Shown: positions 1 through 58,482 of the stretch, in pieces
Layout: each line of letters opens with the position of its first letter
Numbering within the stretch: position 1 is the stretch's first letter
DNA from: Phyllosticta citribraziliensis
Lineage: Eukaryota
Reading direction: 5' to 3'
NCBI RefSeq assembly: GCF_038025025.1
Contig: NW_027117348.1
Coordinates: 124,001-188,000 of the forward strand
Length of the DNA: 64,000 nucleotides
The notes under the pieces: model-generated
What the model saw: only the letters and a program-made list of their open reading frames with translations
What the model was told of the DNA's origin: nothing
The model's database searches: none
Made by a program: the position numbers and the translations under genes

Positions 1-2513
1 GATTAGCGGCCATGCGGTCGTAGACGCTGTACGACTGCGCGGCCGTGTCGACGGCCAGCCCAAACGTGTCTTGGACGTGGTCGACAAAGGTCATGTCGAC
101 CAGCGCGTCGATGCTCTGGCTGCGCTGCACCAGCGCCACGCCGTACAGGCCGGCGGCGACAATCTTGATGGCCGGGATGAACAGAATGACAAACGACGAC
201 GCCGCCACCGTCAGCCCGAGCCGGTTCTTGACGGCGCGGAACGGCGCCAGGACGCTCGGCGCGCTGCTTAGGGAGGACAGTAGCGGCTGCTTCTTGCCCG
301 AATACCCGTTCCAGAGGTTCTTGTACGGCGCCATGACACGCACCGCGGCATCGAGCCCGGAAGACGCATAGCCCAAGACGAGAAAGACGACCGTGGGCAC
401 GAACGCAAAGGCGTCGGACGCGGCGGCCGTGTCGGCGCAAATGCCATCATGTACTTGCGACAAGGCCATGAGAGCAGCGAGGGCCGCCATGACGGCCAGG
501 GTAGCTGCAATGACGCCCCACTTGGCCCAGAACTGAAGGGCAAGCGGGCGGAAGCCGTCGTGGGAGTAGACGCCGGGCGACTGCGAGGGCACGGCGTTGA
601 CGGGCTGGTCCTCCTGCTTGGCCGCTTGCAGCATGACGCCGCCGTTGGGGCTGGGCTGCAGACTCCAAATCTTGGACGCGAGCCCGTGCCGCATGTGGCT
701 CTCGGACGACACGGCCTCGCGGGCAAAGAGTCGCTCGACGGCCTCGGGGGACGACGCCAGCACGACTGCTTGGGCGGCGATGGAGCCGGGGTCCTCGCGG
801 AGGATCGTCTTGGGGCGGAAGAGGGTGCTCTGCAAGACGCACGCAACGGCAATAGCCAGCAGGAAGGCCTGCAACGCGCGCAGCGATATCTGTCTCAGAA
901 ACAACTTGGGCCCGTCGGTGCGAATCTTGCCCTCGACGGGGCCTGTCGTATTGGCACGAGCGAGAGAATTGGTGATTTGCGCCATGATGGCGTTAGCCTG
1001 CTGCTCGACAGCACCAGTCAGCCTTTCAGGGTCGCTGAGGAACGATTCAATGTTCAAAGCGACCTCGTTGTCGGTGATGGACGACGTAAAGGGGTCGAGT
1101 TTGTAGTTGGACAAAAAGTAGCTTGCCGCTTCGGTGATGACGCTGAGATTGGCCTGCGGCTCGACGTTGTAAGTGAAGCCGACGTCGTTGAGCGCAAAGA
1201 CCTTTTGGCTGCGGCCGTCCAGGGGGTTGTTGAGATAAATGTACTGCGCAGCCATCGACGTCTGAATGTCGACTGGAGAGGGCGACGCGCCGAGCGTGTA
1301 GTCGAGCACCTCGCCCGTGGACTGATTGACGCGGACCGTCGCGTCTTGGATGGTGAATGAAGACGAGCACATGGCGCTCACCATGGTCGTGTTGAAGGTG
1401 GTGTCGGAGTCGTCTGCCTGGGTGATGTTTGTTCTCCGGGCGAGGGTCGACACGAGCCGCAGATCCGATTCGTCGTCGCCACAGGCCGTGACGTTGAGCC
1501 ACCCGAGCACAACATCATTGCCATCGGAGCCGGTCGAATACTCCATGACCGTGTCTCGACTGCAATTCAGCTCTGGCTGCTCGCTCGTCTTGGCTGTGAA
1601 GAGCAGCATGTAGGAATTTTCCGGGTCCTCGCCAACAGTCATGTCAATAGGATGGCAACTCCAATTCGGAAAAATGGCCTTGGTTGGCGCCTCCATGGTC
1701 CCATTCTCGGGCATTTGCGACGTATTGGTAAACGACTCGAACACATAGCTGTCCAGCGTCCAAGCCGCAGCCTGGCCATTGGGCAGCTCCTCGGCAACCA
1801 CCGCAGCATACGGCTGCTGGCCTTGAGACGTGTAGGGAATGGCAAGAGAATGATTCGCCGTCTCCAACGCCTCTTCAAACCTAAAGGTGGTGGCCTTGTC
1901 GAAGGTGGCAGGCTGGGTGCTGCTCGCAAACAGATTGACATAGGTGAGCGAGTTGGCCACGGCGACGAGCGCGCCGCAGACGAAGCCAACGACGAGCCCG
2001 GTGAAGACGGCCCAATGCCTGCGGCGCAACGAGGGCACCACCGTAAAGGCCTCGGTGCTGTTGACGTAGTCCAGCGCAACCGAGTTTGAGCTCTTTGACC
2101 ACCGCCGGCTCATGGTCGACCAGGGCGTAATCTTTTTGGCATCGCTGGCGATTGACTTGCACGCGAAGCCCAGCACGACAATGCCAACCGTCGGGATATA
2201 TCTCGCTGCATTGACGCTGCTCGTGTGTTTTGCGTCGGCGGCCAGGCCCTCGTTTCGGCGCACTTCCACGTCCAGGATCTCGAGCAGCAGGGCAAAGACG
2301 ACGCAGTAGAGAGCCAGCGGCAAGGTGCGCGTCATGCGCAGCCATGGAGGGATCCATTCGCGGGGTCGGGGTCGGAGGTGTTGAATTGGTCGAGGCTCTG
2401 CCAGGTCCGCGAGCATGTACTCCTCCTCCGTCGCCACTACCTCAAGTCAGCTGCATTCAGTTCCAGTCCGCAAAGAGACACCAACGCTGTTTTTTCGTAG
2501 TATTTGTCGCCAT
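1..2513 (-). CDS. DUF3433-like multi-pass membrane protein (3' end runs off the window)
   Basis: Minus-strand frame with no stop seen toward position 1, so absent from the ORF track: ...REWIPPWLRMTRTLPLALYCVVFALLLEIL...RYIPTVGIVVLG...KITPWSTMSRRWSKSSNSVALDYVNS...LRRRHWAVF. The W-x-P-x-x-LR, Y-x-P-T and LDY motifs with several hydrophobic segments match my recollection of fungal DUF3433 proteins. Proposed ATG 2513 and intron 2485-2437. Confidence 0.7.
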
Positions 2514-3278: not shown

Positions 3279-5419
3279 TCAGCGAGTCGGCCGATAACTG
3301 AGGAGCCTCTCCTTGTCCCTCTCCATGGTCGCTGGCGACGACGGCCTGCGCAGCTTCTCTGCGATTAGTCCCTCAACCAAGTTGTACGCATGAGGACCGA
3401 GGTCCTCCTCCGCATACCAGCTGTATTCTTCCGGCGGGCAAGGATCTTCATGCCATTGGACAAGGTAGTGCATCTTGCCGTCGACGACTTTAAGATCAAT
3501 GACCTTTGAGAAGTGGTACTCTTTTTCCTCATCATATTCGTCGTCATCATCCAGACAGATGGCGGTTTCTTTGGTCGCGCCCTCAGTAAGCAGTGGCGCC
3601 ATCTTATGGGCCACGATTCGGTGCGCGGGAGAAGGGTTGGCAGGACCAGGCGTCGGAGTTTTGTGGCGCGGCGGGGTGCGGGGACGAGGAGCATCCAAGG
3701 GACGAGGGGCATTCGACGGACAAGCAGCATTCGACGGACGAGAGGCATTCAACGGACGAGGGGCATTCGGCGGACGAGCAGCACTCAACTGGCCCTGACT
3801 GTTCACCCCGATATTGCGGCGAATCATCTCAACATTTTCACGGGTCTCCCGGTGCCGAGCTTCTGCCAATCTAATGGCTTCTGCACTTCTAATGATCTCG
3901 GCGTAGCGAGGGTCCCGGCGCTGTTCCTCCGTGGGTCCGAAACGGACATCATCCTCGTCGTCTGACGAGTCGGAGCTGGATGAGATTTCGATGATTTCGA
4001 CGGGCCGGCGCGTGGGGGTTTCGGGGAGGTTGCTGGCGGGCTGTGGCTGTGGCTGCGGCAGCGGATGGGGCAGGACTGTGGTTTGCTGTTCGGATTGCTG
4101 TGCGGGCGGCTCTTCACCGTTTTCGTTGACCTTTTCGGCCGCGGTGTTGGTTTCAGGTTCGCGCAACGGTTCTTCGGGGCAAGGAGACTTACTCGCATTG
4201 GAGTCGCGGACCCACTCGTCAGACTCCACATAGGCGAGTAGGCTGCCGATACTTTTGTGCGCTGCAGCTGACTTGGGAGGGCGGCCACGCTTCCGAGGCG
4301 CGATGTTCGGAGAAGCAGATGTGGTCGAGTACTGTGAATTGGTGTGGTCCTCTTTGGTGCGGCCCTCTTTGATGCGGCGAGGGTTGAAGCCTGACAACAA
4401 ATCCTCTGGCTCCTGGGAAACCGAGGCGGAGCTGATGGGAGTGAGAGACGGCTTCTTGATGGGGTGAGGTTGGGCAGTCGCGACAGGTCCAGCTTTTCTC
4501 TGGCTCGAGGCGGCGCTGCCAGCTCGAGAAGGGATAAGGATATAGCCGCCGACGCCTCTGACACTGCCTGGAGTTGCTGTGGTGGCCGCGCCTCTCACAT
4601 TGGCCGGATCCACCTCATCTTCGACGTTGTCAAGATCGTGTGACGCCTCCCGGTCGCTGCCATTGCTCTCCGAAACACCATCAAAGGCGCCATTGGCAGG
4701 GCCCACACCCATGATCGCAGCCGTCTTCTTTGGAGGTCGTCCGCGTCTCTTCCCCGCAGGCAGCGTGTCCACGAACGCCCGAGGCGCTTTCTTGGTGTTG
4801 CTCGTCGCCGAACGCGGCCTCTCCTCGTCTTCACCCGTGCTGCTAGGTGTTTTCCACGTCTGCGTTCGCTCAAGACCCGCCGCGCCAATAACGATGCCCG
4901 GCATGACCTCGTCCGGATTGAAATAGGCGAGCTCGAAGCGCTCCAGCTCGGCGGGGGAGACGTAATCATCAATGTCGTCGAGCTCGACCTCGCGCTCTTC
5001 AGGCTCCGTGTCTCCATCCTGGCCGGCCCACTCGATCCTCACAGTGTAGATTGGCTCGCCGCTGCCGTTGCGGTAGCGTCGCGACACGATGGTTGTCGTT
5101 GCGTCGGCGATGGGGATGCGGTCGGAGGGGGTGGGCCTCACGGGGCTGATGGAGGAGCGGCGGACGTAAGGAAGGGGAGGCTCGACGCTGCCATTGACGC
5201 GCGCATGGTCTTTGACGAGCTGTAGCCGAGGGTCAGCAGGCGAAAGCGGCGGCGAGAGGACGAGACGCGTAGTGGGGAGCGAGGGCAGGGCGCGACGGAT
5301 TGGGGTGCGGATGACGCGCAAAGCCGGAGCGACGCGTCGCCAAGTGCAAGACGAACCTTGAGCTCTTGAGAGGTGCGCTGCCTCTTGCGGGGCCGCGGAG
5401 AGGACGCGTCAGACGTCAT
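3279..5419 (-). CDS. Chromodomain protein with two AT-hooks
   Basis: Exon 1 5419-5357 (MTSDASSPRPRKRQRTSQELK), intron 5356-5220 (GTTCGT..GCTGAC..CTACAG), exon 2 to stop 3279. AT-hooks KRRGRPPKK and RKRGRPPKS. C-terminal EYHFSKVIDLKVVDGKMHYLVQWHEDPCPPEEYSWYAEEDL fits the chromodomain pattern. Confidence 0.85.
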
Positions 5420-24352: not shown

Positions 24353-24862
24353 TCAAACGTCCCTCAGGCCGGACGTCGCCTTCTCGACAACCCAGGCCGC
24401 CTGAGCCATCTTGGCGCTCAGCTCCTGCACCTCCTTCGCGGCCTTGATGGCCTTCTTCACCGAGCCCTTCTTGTCCTCTCGGTGCTTTGCCTCGTTCTTC
24501 TTGGCCGCCTCCGTCTCGGCCCTGAGCTGGTGCAGGATGGCGCGGAGGGCCCGATTCTCCTCGTAGAGCGGCTTCAGGGCCGCGTTCTCCTCCTGCAGCG
24601 CCTTGTTGGCTGCGCGCAGGGCTTCGAGCTCGACGACCTTCGGGTCGCGGACGTCACCCTCGGAGGGGGTGGGCACTTCGCCGTCGCTGGCCTGGCCATC
24701 GCCGCTCTCGCTGCCGCGGTCGGAGGGGACAGGCGCCGGCTCGTTGACCGGTTCCTTGGGAGGTCAGTGTATTGTGATCCTCTGGAGTTCTGGAAAACTT
24801 ACAAATTGGTCGAACAACTCTTCGTTGCTCCGGAAGCACGAGGGCTTCCTGAAAACGGGCAT
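24353..24862 (-). CDS. Hypothetical coiled-coil protein
   Basis: MPVFRKPSCFRSNEELFDQF + intron GTAAGT..ACTGAC..CAAG + EPVNEPAP..LEALRAANKALQEENAALKPLYEENRALRAIL; heptad pattern. Confidence 0.7.
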
Positions 24863-27023
24863 TTTGACTGTATAGTGGAGGTGGTGGTGATCTACGATTG
24901 TCAGAAAACAATGCATGGGTGGGACTTCGGTGACAGGGCGGAACTTTACATTAGGAAGGCTTTGGTGGGAGGGGATGGGGTTTGGCGGAAAGGTGTGAAT
25001 GTGCTGTGGTGTGAATGTGCTGTGGTGGAGAGAGGATGTGGTGCGAGGATGTGGTGTTGGAAAAAGAGCCGCTCGCTTCGGGCGGTGCTGTCAAGTTGCC
25101 CACAACAACCACCGCCGGACGCACCACACCACACGCCAAATGTAGCTTGTCCATCTCCCACACCTCAGAAAAGCCAGTATATACTTCTGCTGGTCCAGAA
25201 CCTTTAGCGCCGGTGACCACATGCCGTATTTAAGGCTTCCAGATTCAGTTGCGATTCAACAAGGAGGATTGCTATCAAGTTGGGCAAGCCCTTTCTCAGC
25301 AGTCTTTGGAGACTACAAACTGACTCTACTCAGGGCCATCGGTTCCTAACAGATCGTCTGTCGAATGGCTTTCGGAAGGTTCTGGGCTGTACGCTTCCAG
25401 TGAAAGCAGTCTCGATCGGCATGAAGACTTGCTTTTGGGAAGTAAAAGCAGTTTACCACACAATATTCCCAGAAACCCAAACAGGCAAAGACGGTACAAA
25501 CGAAAGAGACGGCTAAGGCGAAAAGGACGTACCGCGGGCTCCAATCAACCCTCTTTGGCCCACTCGATTGTTCGTGCTGCCCTCTCGTCTACCCTTCCCG
25601 ACTGTCCGATGCTCGCCGCCAACATGCTCCAGCCTGGAGCAACGCGCTCTTGCAACGTCCCTACTCTCGGCTTCCAAATACGCGAAACCACGGTGGTCAG
25701 CTGGTTGTGCATTCGTTTTACAGACTTCCACAGTGTTCGACATGCGTCCACCGACTCGAAATTCCTACGTTCCGTTCATTCCAGCCCCGACACGACGCGT
25801 TGAATCCGAGACAAGACGATAACAGACAGCTGTCAGTCGGGATGCGGTGCCTGCGGCGGCCTCAATCGACAAGGCTTCGCCCTGCCAAAGGCCTTCAATC
25901 TGCAAGGGAATGAAAGGGTGGGACCCGCCTGGACACGGCCACTAGGTGATGCGTCTCTGGGGCGCGGGTCTCTTCGACAGACCGAAAGGAGTGCGTCAAT
26001 TTGTCCAGGGAGGAGACGGGACAGCCGGCAGGGCAAACTCTGCTCCAAAGTCGATCGCCAAGGCCTAGAATTTACAGGTATCGTCCAATTGTTGCCAGAA
26101 TCCCCAAAAGTTAGGCTGAGAATTGCGTGTTGAACAGATCACTGGAAGTCAAGGCGAAGCGTCACGGGACGAGGCGCTTCATTCGGCGAGCGGCTTTACA
26201 CGAAGAAGACCCAAGGAATGCTTCGCGCACATCGGTCAGGGGTGGCACTCGGCAATATAAGCTCCCTTGGATCTGTTATAGGCACAATAGATCGTTGTGC
26301 AAAGAAGAACATTTTTTTCGATAGGAGAGTCACACATCGGGTTGCCTACGCTGCAGCCACAAGGGATCCAGAGGACTCGGGATGCCAGCTGAGCAATTAC
26401 GATGCGTCATTATCAGCTCCCCTGGATTCGCCTTCTACAACCGCTGGCTTTTAAAGTACCTGCGCATCTACACCTCTTCCTCGACGGCGAGGGTCGTCGG
26501 CCCTGCAGCGTTCCCTGCCCCTGATCGCTCTTCACCGTCAACTCCAGTGCTGCAGCCTATTCCAGTAGTGGATCCATTGAGAGGGACGATTTCTCTCCAG
26601 GAGAAGAGCTCGACTCTGGTCCGAGCGGCGCGTGGGCTACGGACAGCATTGCCGAATCTCCTTGGGACCATCCCCTCTGGATTGGACGACTCCTGATCGC
26701 CCCCGGACTTTCTTGCCTCGAGATCCCGAAGCCGAAGGAAAGACAACGAGCACTTCCTTGCCGTACCATCTCTTTGCGCGGTGGGATTCTCGCGCGTCAT
26801 CGGTAACCCGCATTGAGAGTGGAGCCGCAGTAAAGTGCCCGGACCTCCCTGATACCAACACTTTCGGGCCGAACAACGAAATCCCTTCATCCTCTCCTCT
26901 CTGAAGACAAAAGAGACGAAGATTTCATGGCTTTGAAGTTGCTGGACCAGGTCTGCTTGGTCGTCGTGGATTGTCTCACGATTCATAAAATATTTTAGCC
27001 AGGGCTCCTCCATCAACAACAAG

Positions 27024-27168
27024 TCTTCGATGGTCTAGTGGTGATGATTTCCGCTTGTCATTACAGCGTAGTGCAAGCGCGGGAGACCGGGGTTCGATGT
27101 AAGTCTTGATCTAAACGATCCGCTTGTCCAACAGTTCACTAACAGTATTCACAGTCCCCGTCGGAGAG
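27024..27168 (+). tRNA. tRNA-Asp(GTC) with a canonical intron (27061-27077) and a spliceosomal-type intron (27099-27154) in the T-loop
   Basis: Acceptor stem TCTTCGA/TCGGAGA with discriminator G; A-box TGGTCTAGTGG; anticodon arm TCCGC-TTGTCA^C-GCGGG; variable loop AGAC; T-arm CGGGG-TTCGAT^T-CCCCG; T-runs at 27181-27198. Confidence 0.9.
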
Positions 27169-27740
27169 ATCCAATAATCCTTTCTTTTTGCTCTTTTTGT
27201 CGGCGGTAGTTGCGGATGTGGACATGTCACGCTTTGCAGCAGAGTCTGGCTGTTGATCTTTTCTTTCGCTACAAGACTTCATTGGGTATCGCGCAGCGGA
27301 AGCTCGTTGCGGGTGGTGTTTGCGTGCGTTGAAAACAGCTTTTCTGCGACAAGAGGTTGGCTTGAAAGGCAGGCAATTACGTGAGCCATAAGATAAAAGG
27401 AGCTTGGCACAGCGTATACATGTTCCGCCGAGCTTCCATTTTGCAGGTTCTTTTGTTGCTGGGACAGATGGGTGTTCAGTTCAGTCTGATGGTGCACGGA
27501 CCACCAATGACCTGCGACTGACAACACGGCGTCTGCCAACACCTCTCCCCAAACACATCAACACATTCTCATATTTTGTCGTTTCAACCTACGTTCGAGA
27601 CCTGGGTCCTCAACATCAAAAGGCTTACCACACCTGATTTATTTGGCCCAGAAAGATCTTGCGAGATCTCGAACAGTGTCGAAGCCCATCGCCACGCTTT
27701 GGAGAACGACGGTGACGCGGACCGACGCACCAAAGTCACA

Positions 27741-28409
27741 ATGCCAGACCGCTACGCCAAGCGCAACGTGTACAAGGAGAACAGGTCTGAGCATTCCGAC
27801 CGAAAATGTCCAGGCTGAAGCGCTGACCAAGATTTCAACGACAGCTACGTCCATGGTGGCAGTTCCCTTCTCCCGAACAGCTACGTCCATGCCGATAGTT
27901 CCCTTGTCGCCAACAGCGAGTCCACGTCGCGCGAGGACAAAGCGATGAGGACCCGCCTCGACAACATTTACCAAGATGTCAAGGAAGCCGAGCACGAGAA
28001 CAAGCTCATCACCTCGTCTCTCGTCAACTTCAGAGAGCAGTCCATGAAGGCGGAGATCAAAGAGCTGAAGAAGGCGCTCCACAAAGCCGACAAGAGAGTC
28101 GCCAAGTTTGAGGAGAGGGAAGAGGAATACGAGAACCACATCGAAGTCCTGGAGAGGAAGCTGGAGGACACCAACAAGACCGTCTTCGCGTTCAAAGACA
28201 AGGCCCGCAGGTTGCAGGAGGAGCTCCGTCGTGAGAAGTACTGTGCATTCAGGCTCCAGCAGGAGGGCCGTCCTCTCGTGGTCGCTGGCCCTGGTGGATC
28301 CCGTGGTGCAGAGGGTGCTCAGCAGATCCACTCGGGCAAGTACAAGAAGCGCGACAAGGAACTCGACAGGCTGGTGCAGGAGGAGGCGATGCGAAGGGCT
28401 TCTCGCTAG
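27741..28409 (+). CDS. Hypothetical coiled-coil protein
   Basis: MPDRYAKRNVYKENS + intron ~27785-27844 joining in frame to ORF 27945-28409 (KAEIKELKKALHKADKRVAKFEEREEEYENHIEVLERKLED). Confidence 0.7.
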
Positions 28410-32361: not shown

Positions 32362-33345
32362 CTACTTCTTTGCTCCTTGTGCGTGGAAGAATTTGGCCGA
32401 GATGTGCTTGGCTTTCTCCACAATCTTCTGAGGAACCGAAGAGCCAGCGTCGCGAATGAGATGGAAGAGTTCCGCGACGTCCGAAGCCAAGCGAGAGTTG
32501 TATTCTTGGGCGACTGCGACTTCAGATCTAAGCGCCTTGTTTTCGCTCTCAAGCTGGCGGATCTTCGACTGCGCCGCGAGAGCTGCTTGGTCCGTCGACT
32601 TGGCCTTTAGCTTCTTCGCAACTTCTTCGCGCTCCTCCCTCAGCCGGGCGATCTCCTTGTCCAGTTCCTCGACGCGAGCCTCGAATGTCGACGCGTCAGC
32701 ATTTCCAGCCTCCTGCTTGTGCGCAGTGTCGCCGTGGATTTTAGCGCACTCGTGGATCTTGGCCGTCATGGTATTGAGGGCGCCGTCCATCTGCTTGTTT
32801 TCGTTTTCGATGTTCGTGATGTGCGTCTGAAGGGTGTCGACGGTGCCGCTGAGGTTTTGATTGTTCCTCTCGGCGGCGGCCAGGCGCTTCCCCAGCAAGA
32901 CCATGTCGTTGCGCAGCTGGATGTTTTCCTGACAAAGGCGTCAGTATTGGAAGTGTTAGATGTTTTGAAATCAACTTACGACTTCTGCTGCGACCTGCTC
33001 TTCAATTCCAACTTCTGGGTTGTCCTTGTTGACGACCGGCGCAGCAGGGCTGGTAGCTGAGCCAGAAACCTTTGACTTCGACTCGATGTCGGCGGCGTCT
33101 TTGTTGTGTTTGGTGTTGACTCGGGCGGAAGCACGAGCTGCATGACTTTTGCTGTTGTCCTGGACAGTTGCGACCACTGGTCCTGTCCGAGGCTTCCTCT
33201 CTCGAATCCAACGATCTGGCTTGCCGGCGTGATGCTTGTGGCCTCTGGGCGAACGGACCGTCTTCGTTTCTGGCTGTGAACGCTTCTTGGGGTGATAGAC
33301 ACCAGCCATCTGCTCAACGAAGGTACCAAAGGTAGTGGGAGCCAT
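32362..33345 (-). CDS. Hypothetical coiled-coil protein, 2 exons
   Basis: MAPTTFGTFVEQ..QVAAEV + intron 32979-32929 + ENIQLRNDMVLLGKRLAAAERNNQNLSGTVDTLQTHITNIENEN.. Confidence 0.75.
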
Positions 33346-56409: not shown

Positions 56410-58482
56410 ATGACGCATCGACTTACCTTGGGGAGCGTCCTTGCAGCGCTGCTCGCCTGCGCCTTCGCGGCACCACTCAAAGGGCTCGACCGCCAAACCG
56501 TCCAGGACGAGTACGACTTCATCATCGCTGGAGGTACGTGACACCATCCCCAAATCCGCTTTTCCATCCCTGCCAGGAAACAAAAGCAAGTCAAGCCCGA
56601 GAAGCCACATTTAAGCATACATCGAACCCAGGAAACAACGTGTCAGGCAGCTAATAGCGACCAGGCGGAACCGCCGGCCTCGTACTTGCCAATCGCCTAA
56701 CCGAATCTGGCAAGAATCGGGTACTTGTGCTCGAAGCGGGACCCAGTCCTGAAGTCGTCTTGGCGTACAAGCCACCGGGCGGAAATCAATTCCTTGGCGG
56801 CTCCGCCATCGACTGGGGCTTCGCCACGACACCTCAAGAGTTTTTGGACAACCGCATCCTCCGCTACTACCGCGGAAACTGTCTGGGCGGCAGCAGCGCC
56901 ATCAACGGGTTCTACTATGGCCGCGGCACCTCTACGGTCTACGACGATTGGGTCACGCGCGGGAACCCTGGCTGGGGCTGGGACGACGTTTACCCTCTTT
57001 TCGTCAAGGGGACTACATTCAACCCCCCTTCCGACCACGCCGCCAAAGGATTCGACACTAGCTACAAGACATGGGATCCCTCCGCTTATTCCGATGGACC
57101 CCTGCAGATCGGCTTCCAAGGCTACGTCCCCCCTTCTGGCGTGGGATTCATCGAAGCCTCTGCCGAGGCCCTAAGGATTCCAATCGTTGAGGACTACAAC
57201 ACCGGCAACAGTACTGGCGTCAAGCAGGGAACAGCGCAACTGGATGGCAAGTTTGAACGCAGCTCTAGCTACGACGGATATCTGAAGGAAGCCCTCGGCC
57301 GGCCCAATCTGGACGTTTTGCACGATGCGCCCGTCTGGAAGATTAACTTTGACACCACGGGGGACAGGCCTAGGGCTACGGGAGTTGCGTTCATGGACCA
57401 TCCGACGGGTATTGTCCATGATGTTTACGCGAAGAAAGAGGTCATCGTGAGCGCTGGGGCGTTCAATTCGCCTCAACTACTCATGGTGTCCGTAAGTCTA
57501 TCATCGCGACGACGGATGAGAATTGTGCTGACTCAACACAGGGCGTCGGTCCCAAAGACCAGCTCGAAAAGTACGGCATTGACATTGTTCACATCAACGA
57601 GAATATCGGCCAACACCTGAATGACCACTCCGTCTTCTCAATCATGGCCCTGTCGACTCCTGAATTCTCCACTTCCGACATGGCAGCGACCTACTCTGAT
57701 CTCCGCGCCGCACAGCTCGAGTTTTACTCCAACTTGACCGGCCAGTACACGGCGCCTTCGGGGATCACCAACGCCTTCCAGCGTCTTTCTGCCGAGGAGC
57801 TCAGGGAAATCGGTGCCGAGGCCATCCTCGATGCCGGCCTGGAGAATCAGTCGCATATCGAGTATCTGTATGAGAGTGTGTTCTATCCCAATGGTCCGAC
57901 GCCGTATTATACGCCCAAGGGCAACGAGACGTACATCAGCTTGACAGCGTCGAGCATGGTCGCCTTGTCCAGGGGCAACGTGACGCTGCGATCCAACTCC
58001 ATGGCCGAGTTCCCCGCCATAAACCCCAACGCAAGTCCCCCTACAAGAATCTCACTCCGACGACCACATCTAACAGACCGCAGTACTACGCCGACCCCAC
58101 GGACGCCAAAATCGCCATCGCGTCCTTCAAATACCTCCGCAAGATCCTCGCGCACCCACGCATGTCACAATACACGGTCGGGCCAAACAACGGCGAAGTG
58201 TCGCCCGGTCCCGCCGTCGCCGACGACGACGACGACGCCATCATGGCGTACGTGCGGCAGAACACGGTGCCCAACTGGCACGCGTCGGGGACGAACCAGA
58301 TGCTGCCGGAGGCGGCCGGCGGCGTCGTCGACCCGTCGCTCAAGGTGTACGGCGTCGACGGGCTGCGCGTGTGCGATTGCAGTATCATTCCTGTTTTGCC
58401 TGATGTCAATATTGTAGCGACGGTATTTATGATTGGGGAGAAGGGGGCGCTGTTGATTAGGAGGGATTGGGGTGATTTGTGA
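56410..58482 (+). CDS. Secreted GMC oxidoreductase (CAZy AA3-like)
   Basis: Signal peptide MTHRLTLGSVLAALLACAFAAP; EYDFIIAGGGTAGLVLANRL (FAD-binding); GNCLGGSSAING; KEVIVSAGAFNSPQLLMVSG; WHASGT; LKVYGVDGLRVCDCS; NIVATVFMIGEKGA; introns ~56534-56665, 57492-57541 and GC-AG 58031-58083. Confidence 0.95.

Follow-up and report, generated by a model that had tools for sequence, protein, structure and literature searches.

Spliceosomal introns also occur in genes that are not transcribed by RNA polymerase II (Pol II). They are known from fungal genes for the small nuclear RNA (snRNA) U6, which is an RNA polymerase III (Pol III) transcript, from the genes for U1, U2, and U5, and from the ribosomal RNA (rRNA) genes of ascomycetes, as set out in PMC5855946, where Tani and Ohshima (1989, 1991) are cited for the U6 intron of fission yeast. 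PMC8527467 reports that spliceosomal introns in the ribosomal DNA (rDNA) of lichens are removed in vivo and also by yeast from RNA polymerase I (Pol I) transcripts and cites Bhattacharya et al. (2000) for the ectopic rDNA introns of lichen-forming and other ascomycetes. A further point of reference is Cyanidioschyzon merolae, whose transfer RNA (tRNA) genes, according to PMC9602550, have introns in the T arm and up to three introns per gene. Here, we describe a split tRNA-Asp(GUC) gene at positions 27024 to 27168 on the plus strand of a 64,000-nucleotide (nt) stretch of Phyllosticta citribraziliensis contig NW_027117348.1 (contig positions 124,001 to 188,000); this whole stretch is referred to as the window, and all coordinates are counted from its first letter. 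The gene has a complete tRNA-Asp(GUC) body with two inserts, one of 17 nt at the canonical tRNA intron position and one of 56 nt in the T-loop, and judged by its signals, the latter is a spliceosomal-type intron and not a bulge-helix-bulge (BHB) intron of the tRNA pathway. Whether mature tRNA is made from such genes through the combined action of the spliceosome and the tRNA splicing endonuclease is, in our judgment, evenly balanced. An initial annotation of the locus had named spliceosomal introns in fungal U6 and rRNA genes, and PMC5855946 and PMC8527467 support it in this.

The gene is divided into three exons. Exon 1 (27024-27060, 37 nt) comprises the 5′ strand of the acceptor stem, the D arm, the 5′ strand of the anticodon stem, and the loop with GTC and A37, and it is followed by the 17-nt insert (27061-27077) at site 37/38. 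Exon 2 (27078-27098) provides C38, the 3′ strand of the anticodon stem, a 4-nt variable region, the 5′ strand of the T stem, and T-loop positions 54 to 59. The 56-nt insert (27099-27154) lies between positions 59 and 60, and exon 3 (27155-27168) contributes T60, the 3′ strands of the T stem and the acceptor stem, and the discriminator G. When both inserts were removed by a script, a 72-nt cloverleaf was obtained with standard bases at all but one of its 21 stem pairs (20 of 21); a T·T opposition stands at 13:22. This product has a 7-nt T-loop, a 5-bp T stem, a 4-nt variable region, the pair G10:U25, the anticodon GTC, A37, C38, and the discriminator G; we take G73, G10:U25, and C38 to be identity elements for aspartyl-tRNA synthetase in yeast. 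Neither a decayed cloverleaf nor a shared tRNA-unrelated tail, the marks of a tRNA pseudogene or a tRNA-derived short interspersed nuclear element (SINE), was found, as the cloverleaf is intact and the copies in a relative (see below) have nothing in common outside 27024-27168.

Standard searches pass over this gene. ARAGORN, with or without its intron mode, reported zero tRNAs in the unedited window, and Rfam gave no family at gathering level within it; near the locus there were two sub-threshold matches resembling small nucleolar RNAs, both attributed to chance. Once the 56-nt insert alone was removed, ARAGORN called a tRNA with ends exactly at 27024 and 27168 and with a 17-nt intron in the anticodon loop. 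The label attached to this call was Leu(caa), which arose from placement of the intron at position 34. We rejected this identity, since placement at 37/38 gives GTC, the variable region is short, and the product matches an intact tRNA-Asp; a short variable region excludes tRNA-Leu. The intact tRNA used for this comparison is a tRNA-Asp(gtc) called by ARAGORN in a metagenome locus, L005, to which the 72-nt product aligns without gaps and with 60 of 72 positions identical; the anticodon loop and T arm are the same, and the acceptor stems differ in a compensatory manner at 3:70 and 7:66. We set the 17-nt intron at 37/38 because the anticodon loop then equals that of the intact tRNA-Asp. In the predicted fold, the intron pairs with the anticodon loop and the anticodon stem is extended by intron bases; with its 37/38 site, short length, and pairing to the anticodon loop, 27061-27077 has the properties of a canonical eukaryotic tRNA intron. 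The initial annotation, which was made from the sequence alone, had described an intact tRNA-Asp(GUC) cloverleaf, a separate 17-nt intron at 37/38, and a T-loop restored by exact excision of the 56-nt segment and had expected tRNA finders to overlook the gene. The stem pairing and the gap-free alignment, the 17-nt anticodon-loop intron called after removal of the larger insert, the 7-nt loop left when 27099-27154 is taken out, and the blank results of both ARAGORN and Rfam on the unedited sequence bear out all four points.

The 56-nt insert begins with GTAAGT (27099-27104), contains ACTAAC (27138-27143) with a candidate branch A at 27142, and ends in CACAG, of which the CAG at 27152-27154 is the putative 3′ splice site. 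All three U2-type signals that had been named for it were thus located, and the insert combines a GTRNGT start, a CTRAY element near the 3′ end, and a terminal YAG, as U2-type GT-AG introns do. Beyond the branch A, an AG already follows after 3 nt (27144-27145), and the next, 12 nt away (27153-27154), is the one that restores the T-loop. The full pattern GTAAGT-N20-50-CTAAC-N3-25-YAG has a single match on both strands of the 64 kb, at the insert, where 0.05 was expected, and any match at all occurred in 4 of 100 shuffles. In a control, all GT..AG segments of 30 to 150 nt on both strands of the window were taken out one at a time; a tRNA call resulted from one excision out of 55,181, namely, 27099-27154. 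Two protein-coding introns of the window were verified by in-frame joining of open reading frames (ORFs), one at 57492-57541, which lowers the number of stops from 7 to 1, and one at 32929-32979, which lowers it from 3 to 0; both read GTAAGT..CTGAC..YAG, and the first shares its initial 8 bases with the T-loop insert. These introns are 50 to 51 nt long, and 19 other intron-like segments range from 47 to 94 nt, compared with 56 nt for the insert. A looser intron pattern was not significantly enriched in the window (20 matches versus 15.5 ± 2.7 in shuffles). The insert has no run of four or more T's, but this is uninformative, since only 1 of the 19 other intron-like segments has such a run; the absence of T runs as a sign of Pol III compatibility was rejected on the ground that 18 of 19 segments also lack them. 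Introner-like mobile introns are marked by numerous near-identical copies in unrelated genes of one genome; no further copies of the insert were present within the 64-kb window, where the best matches of 14 to 15 nt are at chance level, and a search there for other pieces of tRNA-Asp or of the insert returned just scattered chance matches of 9 to 15 nt. A second near-match to the junction, at 56615-56628 on the minus strand, was dismissed for lack of a cloverleaf context.

The gene was compared, over 25800-28400, with public contigs of four runs, X1 to X4, of which three are DNA-like and the kind of the fourth, X4, is not on record. X2 and X3 represent one organism, and X4 represents another, a relative. 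The contigs of X2 and X3 and some of those of X1 show 0 differences to the window, and a 234-nt X1 contig equals 27085-27318, insert included, again with 0 differences; the X1 contigs may come from the window's own sample and are in that case not independent. In X4, contigs were found in all 30 bins of the compared region, and the listed contigs and flanks (records 14 to 19) differ by about 7 to 15%. One of them (record 18) is aligned from 27075 onward, spans the insert and exon 3, and continues up to 27553 in the orthologous flank downstream; with 24 aligned letters before the 5′ junction and a 31-letter rule, it counts as bridging the 3′ junction only. Another (record 17, 2230 nt) covers 27031-27168 and bridges the 5′ junction before it passes into unrelated sequence. 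Four X4 contigs lie on the insert over 27105-27130, with depths of 128.5, 148, 82.4, and 79.7 (438.7 in sum), and a fifth insert-bearing contig begins at 27135, which brings the summed depth to 512.8; among these contigs, at least three to four have flanks other than those of the orthologous locus. The split gene is not an assembly artifact, as it is carried by the 234-nt X1 contig and by the X4 contigs.

All X4 copies of the insert sit in the same tRNA gene body, and among the X4 indels listed, the length of the insert changes by −3, +6, and −2 nt, with none of the changes falling within GTAAGT, ACTAAC, or CAG. In the loose ends of the X4 contigs, homology stops exactly at 27024 and 27168, limits that, as far as the alignments go, are the pattern of dispersed tRNA gene families. 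Read in the same way, the comparison makes the insert older than the separation of the two organisms, and the relative carries it at several of its tRNA-Asp loci. Elsewhere in X4, over 25805-26786, pairs of contigs occupy the same coordinates with depths of 56.3/11.7 and 58.8/13.0 and with differing difference counts, which suggests two haplotypes, two strains, or a hybrid. At 27590-27647, one X4 contig (depth 64) skips 56 nt with ends AC..GG, and another skips 41 nt (27590-27632); without GT..AG ends, these skips are an indel polymorphism or a species difference.

Wider scans gave no additional split tRNAs. With an exon-only pattern that is blind to splice signals, a metagenome scan returned nine loci and 0 split tRNAs; seven of the loci were discarded as chance matches in GC-rich sequence, and the other two were set aside because their T arm, of tRNA-Asp type, is intact and has a second copy of a 3′ piece behind it. 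In these two, L005 (700-830, minus strand) and L008 (about 700-800), the tRNA-Asp-type T arm and 3′ end are followed by a tandem repeat of the last ~19 nt plus the downstream flank, with the repeated unit starting at TCGAT; ARAGORN calls the tRNA-Asp(gtc) in L005 and just a nearby tRNA-Gly in L008. The two loci show that partial tandem duplications from the tRNA-Asp T-loop occur in other eukaryote-like contigs. The 17-mer spanning the junction was matched at 15 loci in contigs of prokaryotic genomes and at 1 locus in viral contigs; these are all chance matches, and 0 of the 235 GT..AG excisions at these loci give a tRNA.

The surroundings of the gene fit those of a Pol III transcription unit. 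The block ATAAAATATTTTA at 26985-26997, on the plus strand from −39 to −27 relative to the 5′ end of the tRNA, is the only run of 13 or more A/T-only positions in the 64-kb window and is a candidate TATA-like TFIIIB site; that such an upstream block is a Pol III element we assume from general knowledge of fungal and yeast tRNA genes. The leader directly 5′ of the mature end reads CAACAACAAG (27014-27023), and in the loose ends, the flanks of other copies in X1 and X4 likewise end in CAACAA-like strings, a motif that presumably marks Pol III start sites, as in yeasts. Within the gene, the A box TGGTCTAGTGG (27031-27041) fits the consensus TRGYNNARNNG given in PMC7954030. The B box, by the consensus RGTTCRANTCC of the same source, keeps 8 of its 11 positions in the DNA, and all 11 agree once the insert is taken out; at the junction, the DNA reads GGTTCGAT followed by GTA in place of the last three consensus positions, TCC, so that the insert does break the B box, as had been pointed out at the outset. 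Downstream, T5 runs at 27185-27189 and 27194-27198, the first of which starts 17 nt after the gene, are the likely Pol III terminator; there is no run of four or more T's inside 27024-27168, and another X4 copy has a T6 run at the matching place (loose end past 27177). The upstream A/T block, the A box, and the T5 terminator together fit a live Pol III gene. A minus-strand ORF at 26471-27013 overlaps the promoter region and has no homologues (near lengths only) and no Pfam family.

The insert itself bears a likeness to the 5′ part of the gene in which it lies. At 27119-27128, on the plus strand, it contains the sequence TCCGCTTGTC, 10 nt that a repeat search found to be identical to the anticodon stem and loop of the gene itself (27050-27059), and it aligns end to end and colinearly with the last 5 nt of the leader, exon 1, and the canonical intron (27019-27077). 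The global alignment score is 13.5 (z = 4.3), which was reached by 0 of 5,000 shuffles and by 2 of 4,972 random 56-mers from the window; the best of the 19 other intron-like segments scores 8.0 against the same target. The target was picked after the similarity had been noticed, and the shared start, AAGTCTT, overlaps the local 5′ splice site consensus; with the ends trimmed, the similarity of the core has a P value of about 0.01 to 0.02 (50 of 5,000 shuffles; 103 of 4,965 window segments). If the resemblance is real, it suggests that the intron arose when the pre-tRNA acquired an internal copy of its 5′ part. The 5′ and 3′ splice sites would then derive for the most part from the junction of leader and exon (AAG/T) and from the end of the canonical intron (AAG). 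Such an origin offers a mechanism for the birth of the intron and at the same time makes the splice signals less improbable for a gene that is dead.

In light of these observations, we propose that 27024-27168 is a nuclear tRNA-Asp(GUC) gene of filamentous ascomycete type, live now or until recently, with two introns of different kinds. Its transcription by Pol III would depend on the A/T block upstream and the A box and would end at the T5 terminator. The spliceosome would take out the 56-nt insert, with U1 bound to GTAAGT, the A of ACTAAC as branch point, and ligation to the first AG that can be used, 12 nt downstream; this excision would rebuild the T stem and a T-loop of 7 nt. Removal of the 17-nt insert from 37/38 would fall to the tRNA splicing endonuclease and a ligase. 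Since the endonuclease takes its measure from the mature domain in its folded state, the T-loop intron is probably removed first. The T-loop intron would be older than the split from the X4 relative, in which it either spread to or was kept in several copies. A more extended proposal, that this fungal lineage keeps a tRNA-Asp subfamily that needs both machineries and whose T-loop intron was intronized from the gene's own copy of leader, exon 1, and intron, we regard as a conjecture that is more probably wrong than right by a wide measure, although it would mean that a Pol III gene had given rise to an intron within itself and out of its own sequence, perhaps by way of RNA.

Several points weigh against a functional, doubly spliced gene. 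The anatomy, the specificity of the excision, the absence of a BHB motif, the likeness to local introns, and the retention in a relative are observed; transcription, both splicing reactions, their order, and the origin of the intron are inferred. With the B box broken, binding of TFIIIC may be weak or lost, and Pol III transcripts are not ordinary substrates of the spliceosome. The summed depth in the 5′-exon bin exceeds that in the insert bin in both X4 (2544 versus 411) and X1 (83.5 versus 3.6), where contig depths are not copy numbers, and in two X1 contigs, the match to 27024-27098 breaks off precisely at 27098, as would be expected of copies free of the insert. This at most hints that most tRNA-Asp copies lack the insert and that the cell need not depend on those that have it. 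That the signals are spared in X4 applies to the indels listed, besides which there are 21 further indel rows and 318 substitution rows. Finally, with descent from a self-copy, AAGT and AG come free, and the chance cost of the remaining signals is, on a rough estimate, about 1e−3. These points lead to the main rival explanation, which we consider rather unlikely but serious: a dead or dying tRNA-Asp subfamily, in which the gene was inactivated by an insertion into its body, which may be a copy of some of its 5′ part and resembles an intron by look only. In a large family, each copy is dispensable, and a broken allele could have drifted and been copied by gene conversion or duplication. The split B box, the colinearity with leader, exon 1, and canonical intron (score of 13.5) together with the 10-nt exact repeat, the AAGT and AG that self-copy descent would give without selection, and, as a weak hint, the depth pattern in which most family members lack the insert would all be expected of such a history. 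However, a perfect GTAAGT, an ACTAAC at working distance, and an AG at precisely the base that restores the T-loop are unexpected in junk. Furthermore, the exons are intact, and 27024-27098 is identical, with 0 differences, to another copy in X1 (record 2), although the insert predates a flank divergence of 7 to 15%, and in the relative the insert varies in length with, among the indels listed, none in the three signals.

Two other explanations place the locus outside the ordinary tRNA gene or outside the spliceosome. It is quite improbable, in our view, that the tRNA-like body is incidental to or exapted in a Pol II transcript, be it the 5′ untranslated region or a noncoding RNA of a neighbor, and that the 56-nt segment is an ordinary intron of that transcript. 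The signals are indeed those of the organism's Pol II introns, and the plus-strand coiled-coil-like ORF at 27511-28409 starts about 350 to 650 nt downstream, but removal of an ordinary intron would not alone rebuild a cloverleaf, given that one excision in 55,181 does so; two T5 runs follow the gene, the X4 copies are homologous just between 27024 and 27168, as tRNA families are and transcripts are not, and the overlapping minus-strand ORF (26471-27013) is without homologues at near lengths. It is more improbable by far that the insert is a noncanonical tRNA intron of archaeal or red-algal type, excised by the tRNA splicing endonuclease at a BHB motif. The endonuclease is not known to remove noncanonical introns at any other site. 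BHB geometry, taken as two 3-nt bulges and a 4-bp helix, was scored at both insert junctions in all bulge registers, and none was found at the ends of the 56-nt insert: no register gives a central helix with more than 2 of 4 pairs, the total score is 7 where the background averages 6.14, 40% of random sites do as well, and the first bases of the insert are unable to pair with the CCCC that follows the 3′ junction. With no BHB at its ends, an endonuclease route for the insert is unsupported. The scorer has no validated positive, in that the canonical intron, the intended control, scored 5 versus 6.14; since canonical eukaryotic tRNA introns need no strict BHB, this low score marks an invalid control. 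T-arm introns of the tRNA pathway do exist in a eukaryote, as at 53/54 in the C. merolae tRNA-Ile(UAU) (PMC9602550); here, however, such a pathway would leave the spliceosomal signals as an unexplained coincidence.

The window as a whole has 55% G+C and includes a DUF3433 domain at 2-2446 (minus strand), which we take to be a fungal family, and a GMC oxidoreductase at 56658-57620 (plus strand). With these fungal-type genes and its short GT..AG introns that join ORFs in frame, we read it as belonging to a filamentous ascomycete. Three ORFs, at 27819-28409 (plus), 24353-24763 (minus), and 32365-32940 (minus), have weak Pfam matches of coiled-coil type only (Fez1, ATG16, SIKE, and Rab11-FIP3-like), and the ORFs around the tRNA gene may be a cluster of coiled-coil proteins. 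A 709-amino-acid open frame at 3279-5408 (minus) has a sub-threshold match to a chromo domain (E value, 3.2e−05; 24.2 bits versus a cutoff of 25.1) and to no other Pfam family; many long frames in the window have no Pfam match. An inverted repeat of 23 nt (26932-26954 and 27598-27620, 78% complementary, 643 nt apart) flanks the tRNA locus and may be due to chance, and another of 11 nt (27593-27603 and 27664-27674) lies in the spacer before the downstream ORF.

Each of the three intron classes of eukaryotes is taught as belonging to a gene class of its own. If the gene described here is really spliced as proposed, its product would be the first natural tRNA known to need both splicing systems, and the small set of non-Pol II genes with spliceosomal introns, to date U6 and rRNA genes, would come to include the Pol III class that has been studied most. 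The spliceosome would thereby be shown to accept a folded pre-tRNA as a substrate, standard tRNA finders would be seen to undercount tRNA genes in some fungi, and the response of TFIIIC to a split B box could be studied in a natural example. The likeness of the insert to the gene's 5′ part makes the birth of an intron testable within a gene of 145 nt. A full-text literature search, which omits most subscription journals and old scans, found no precedent for a natural spliceosomal intron in a nuclear tRNA gene, and the phrase "spliceosomal introns in tRNA" did not occur in the searched text. In two broad tRNA reviews, the spliceosome is named just as a contrast or in a list, with one occurrence in the 300,000 characters searched of PMC10275265 and one in PMC7954030, in a list of Pol III transcripts.

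Among known systems, the fungal U6 gene is close to this one in that, as described in PMC5855946, a highly conserved region of a small Pol III RNA gene is split by a short intron with canonical signals. The existence of the U6 introns and of the lichen rRNA introns makes spliceosomal removal from Pol III and Pol I transcripts feasible. However, U6 lies in the spliceosome's active site, so that reverse splicing is a natural origin for its introns, whereas the T-loop of a tRNA has no such link. Unlike U6, moreover, the tRNA-Asp gene has a second intron of another kind, a split internal promoter element, and an insert that resembles its own 5′ part. With the lichen rDNA introns, as presented in PMC8527467, it shares a spliceosomal-type intron in a non-Pol II gene of an ascomycete, but those introns are in the Pol I-transcribed rRNA, whereas here a single 56-nt intron destroys the fold of a 72-nt RNA from a Pol III tRNA gene. 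Like the genes of C. merolae, according to PMC9602550, it is a eukaryotic nuclear tRNA gene that has multiple introns, including one in the T arm, and that is missed by standard finders. The C. merolae introns belong to the tRNA endonuclease pathway, whereas here the BHB test fails and the signals are spliceosomal. The noncanonical introns of archaea and nucleomorphs and the tRNA introns of C. merolae rely on a BHB fold. Koehrer, Vogel, and Domdey, in the EMBO J in 1990, are reported to have put a pre-mRNA intron into a yeast tRNA gene and to have found it spliced by the machinery for pre-mRNA; if so, a Pol III pre-tRNA is able to act as a substrate of the spliceosome in a fungus. That construct was artificial and reportedly had its intron at the anticodon-loop site, whereas the intron described here is natural, lies in the T-loop, and stands beside a normal tRNA intron. 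The gene is best filed with the ectopic spliceosomal introns of non-Pol II genes, here in a tRNA gene and in addition to a canonical tRNA intron.

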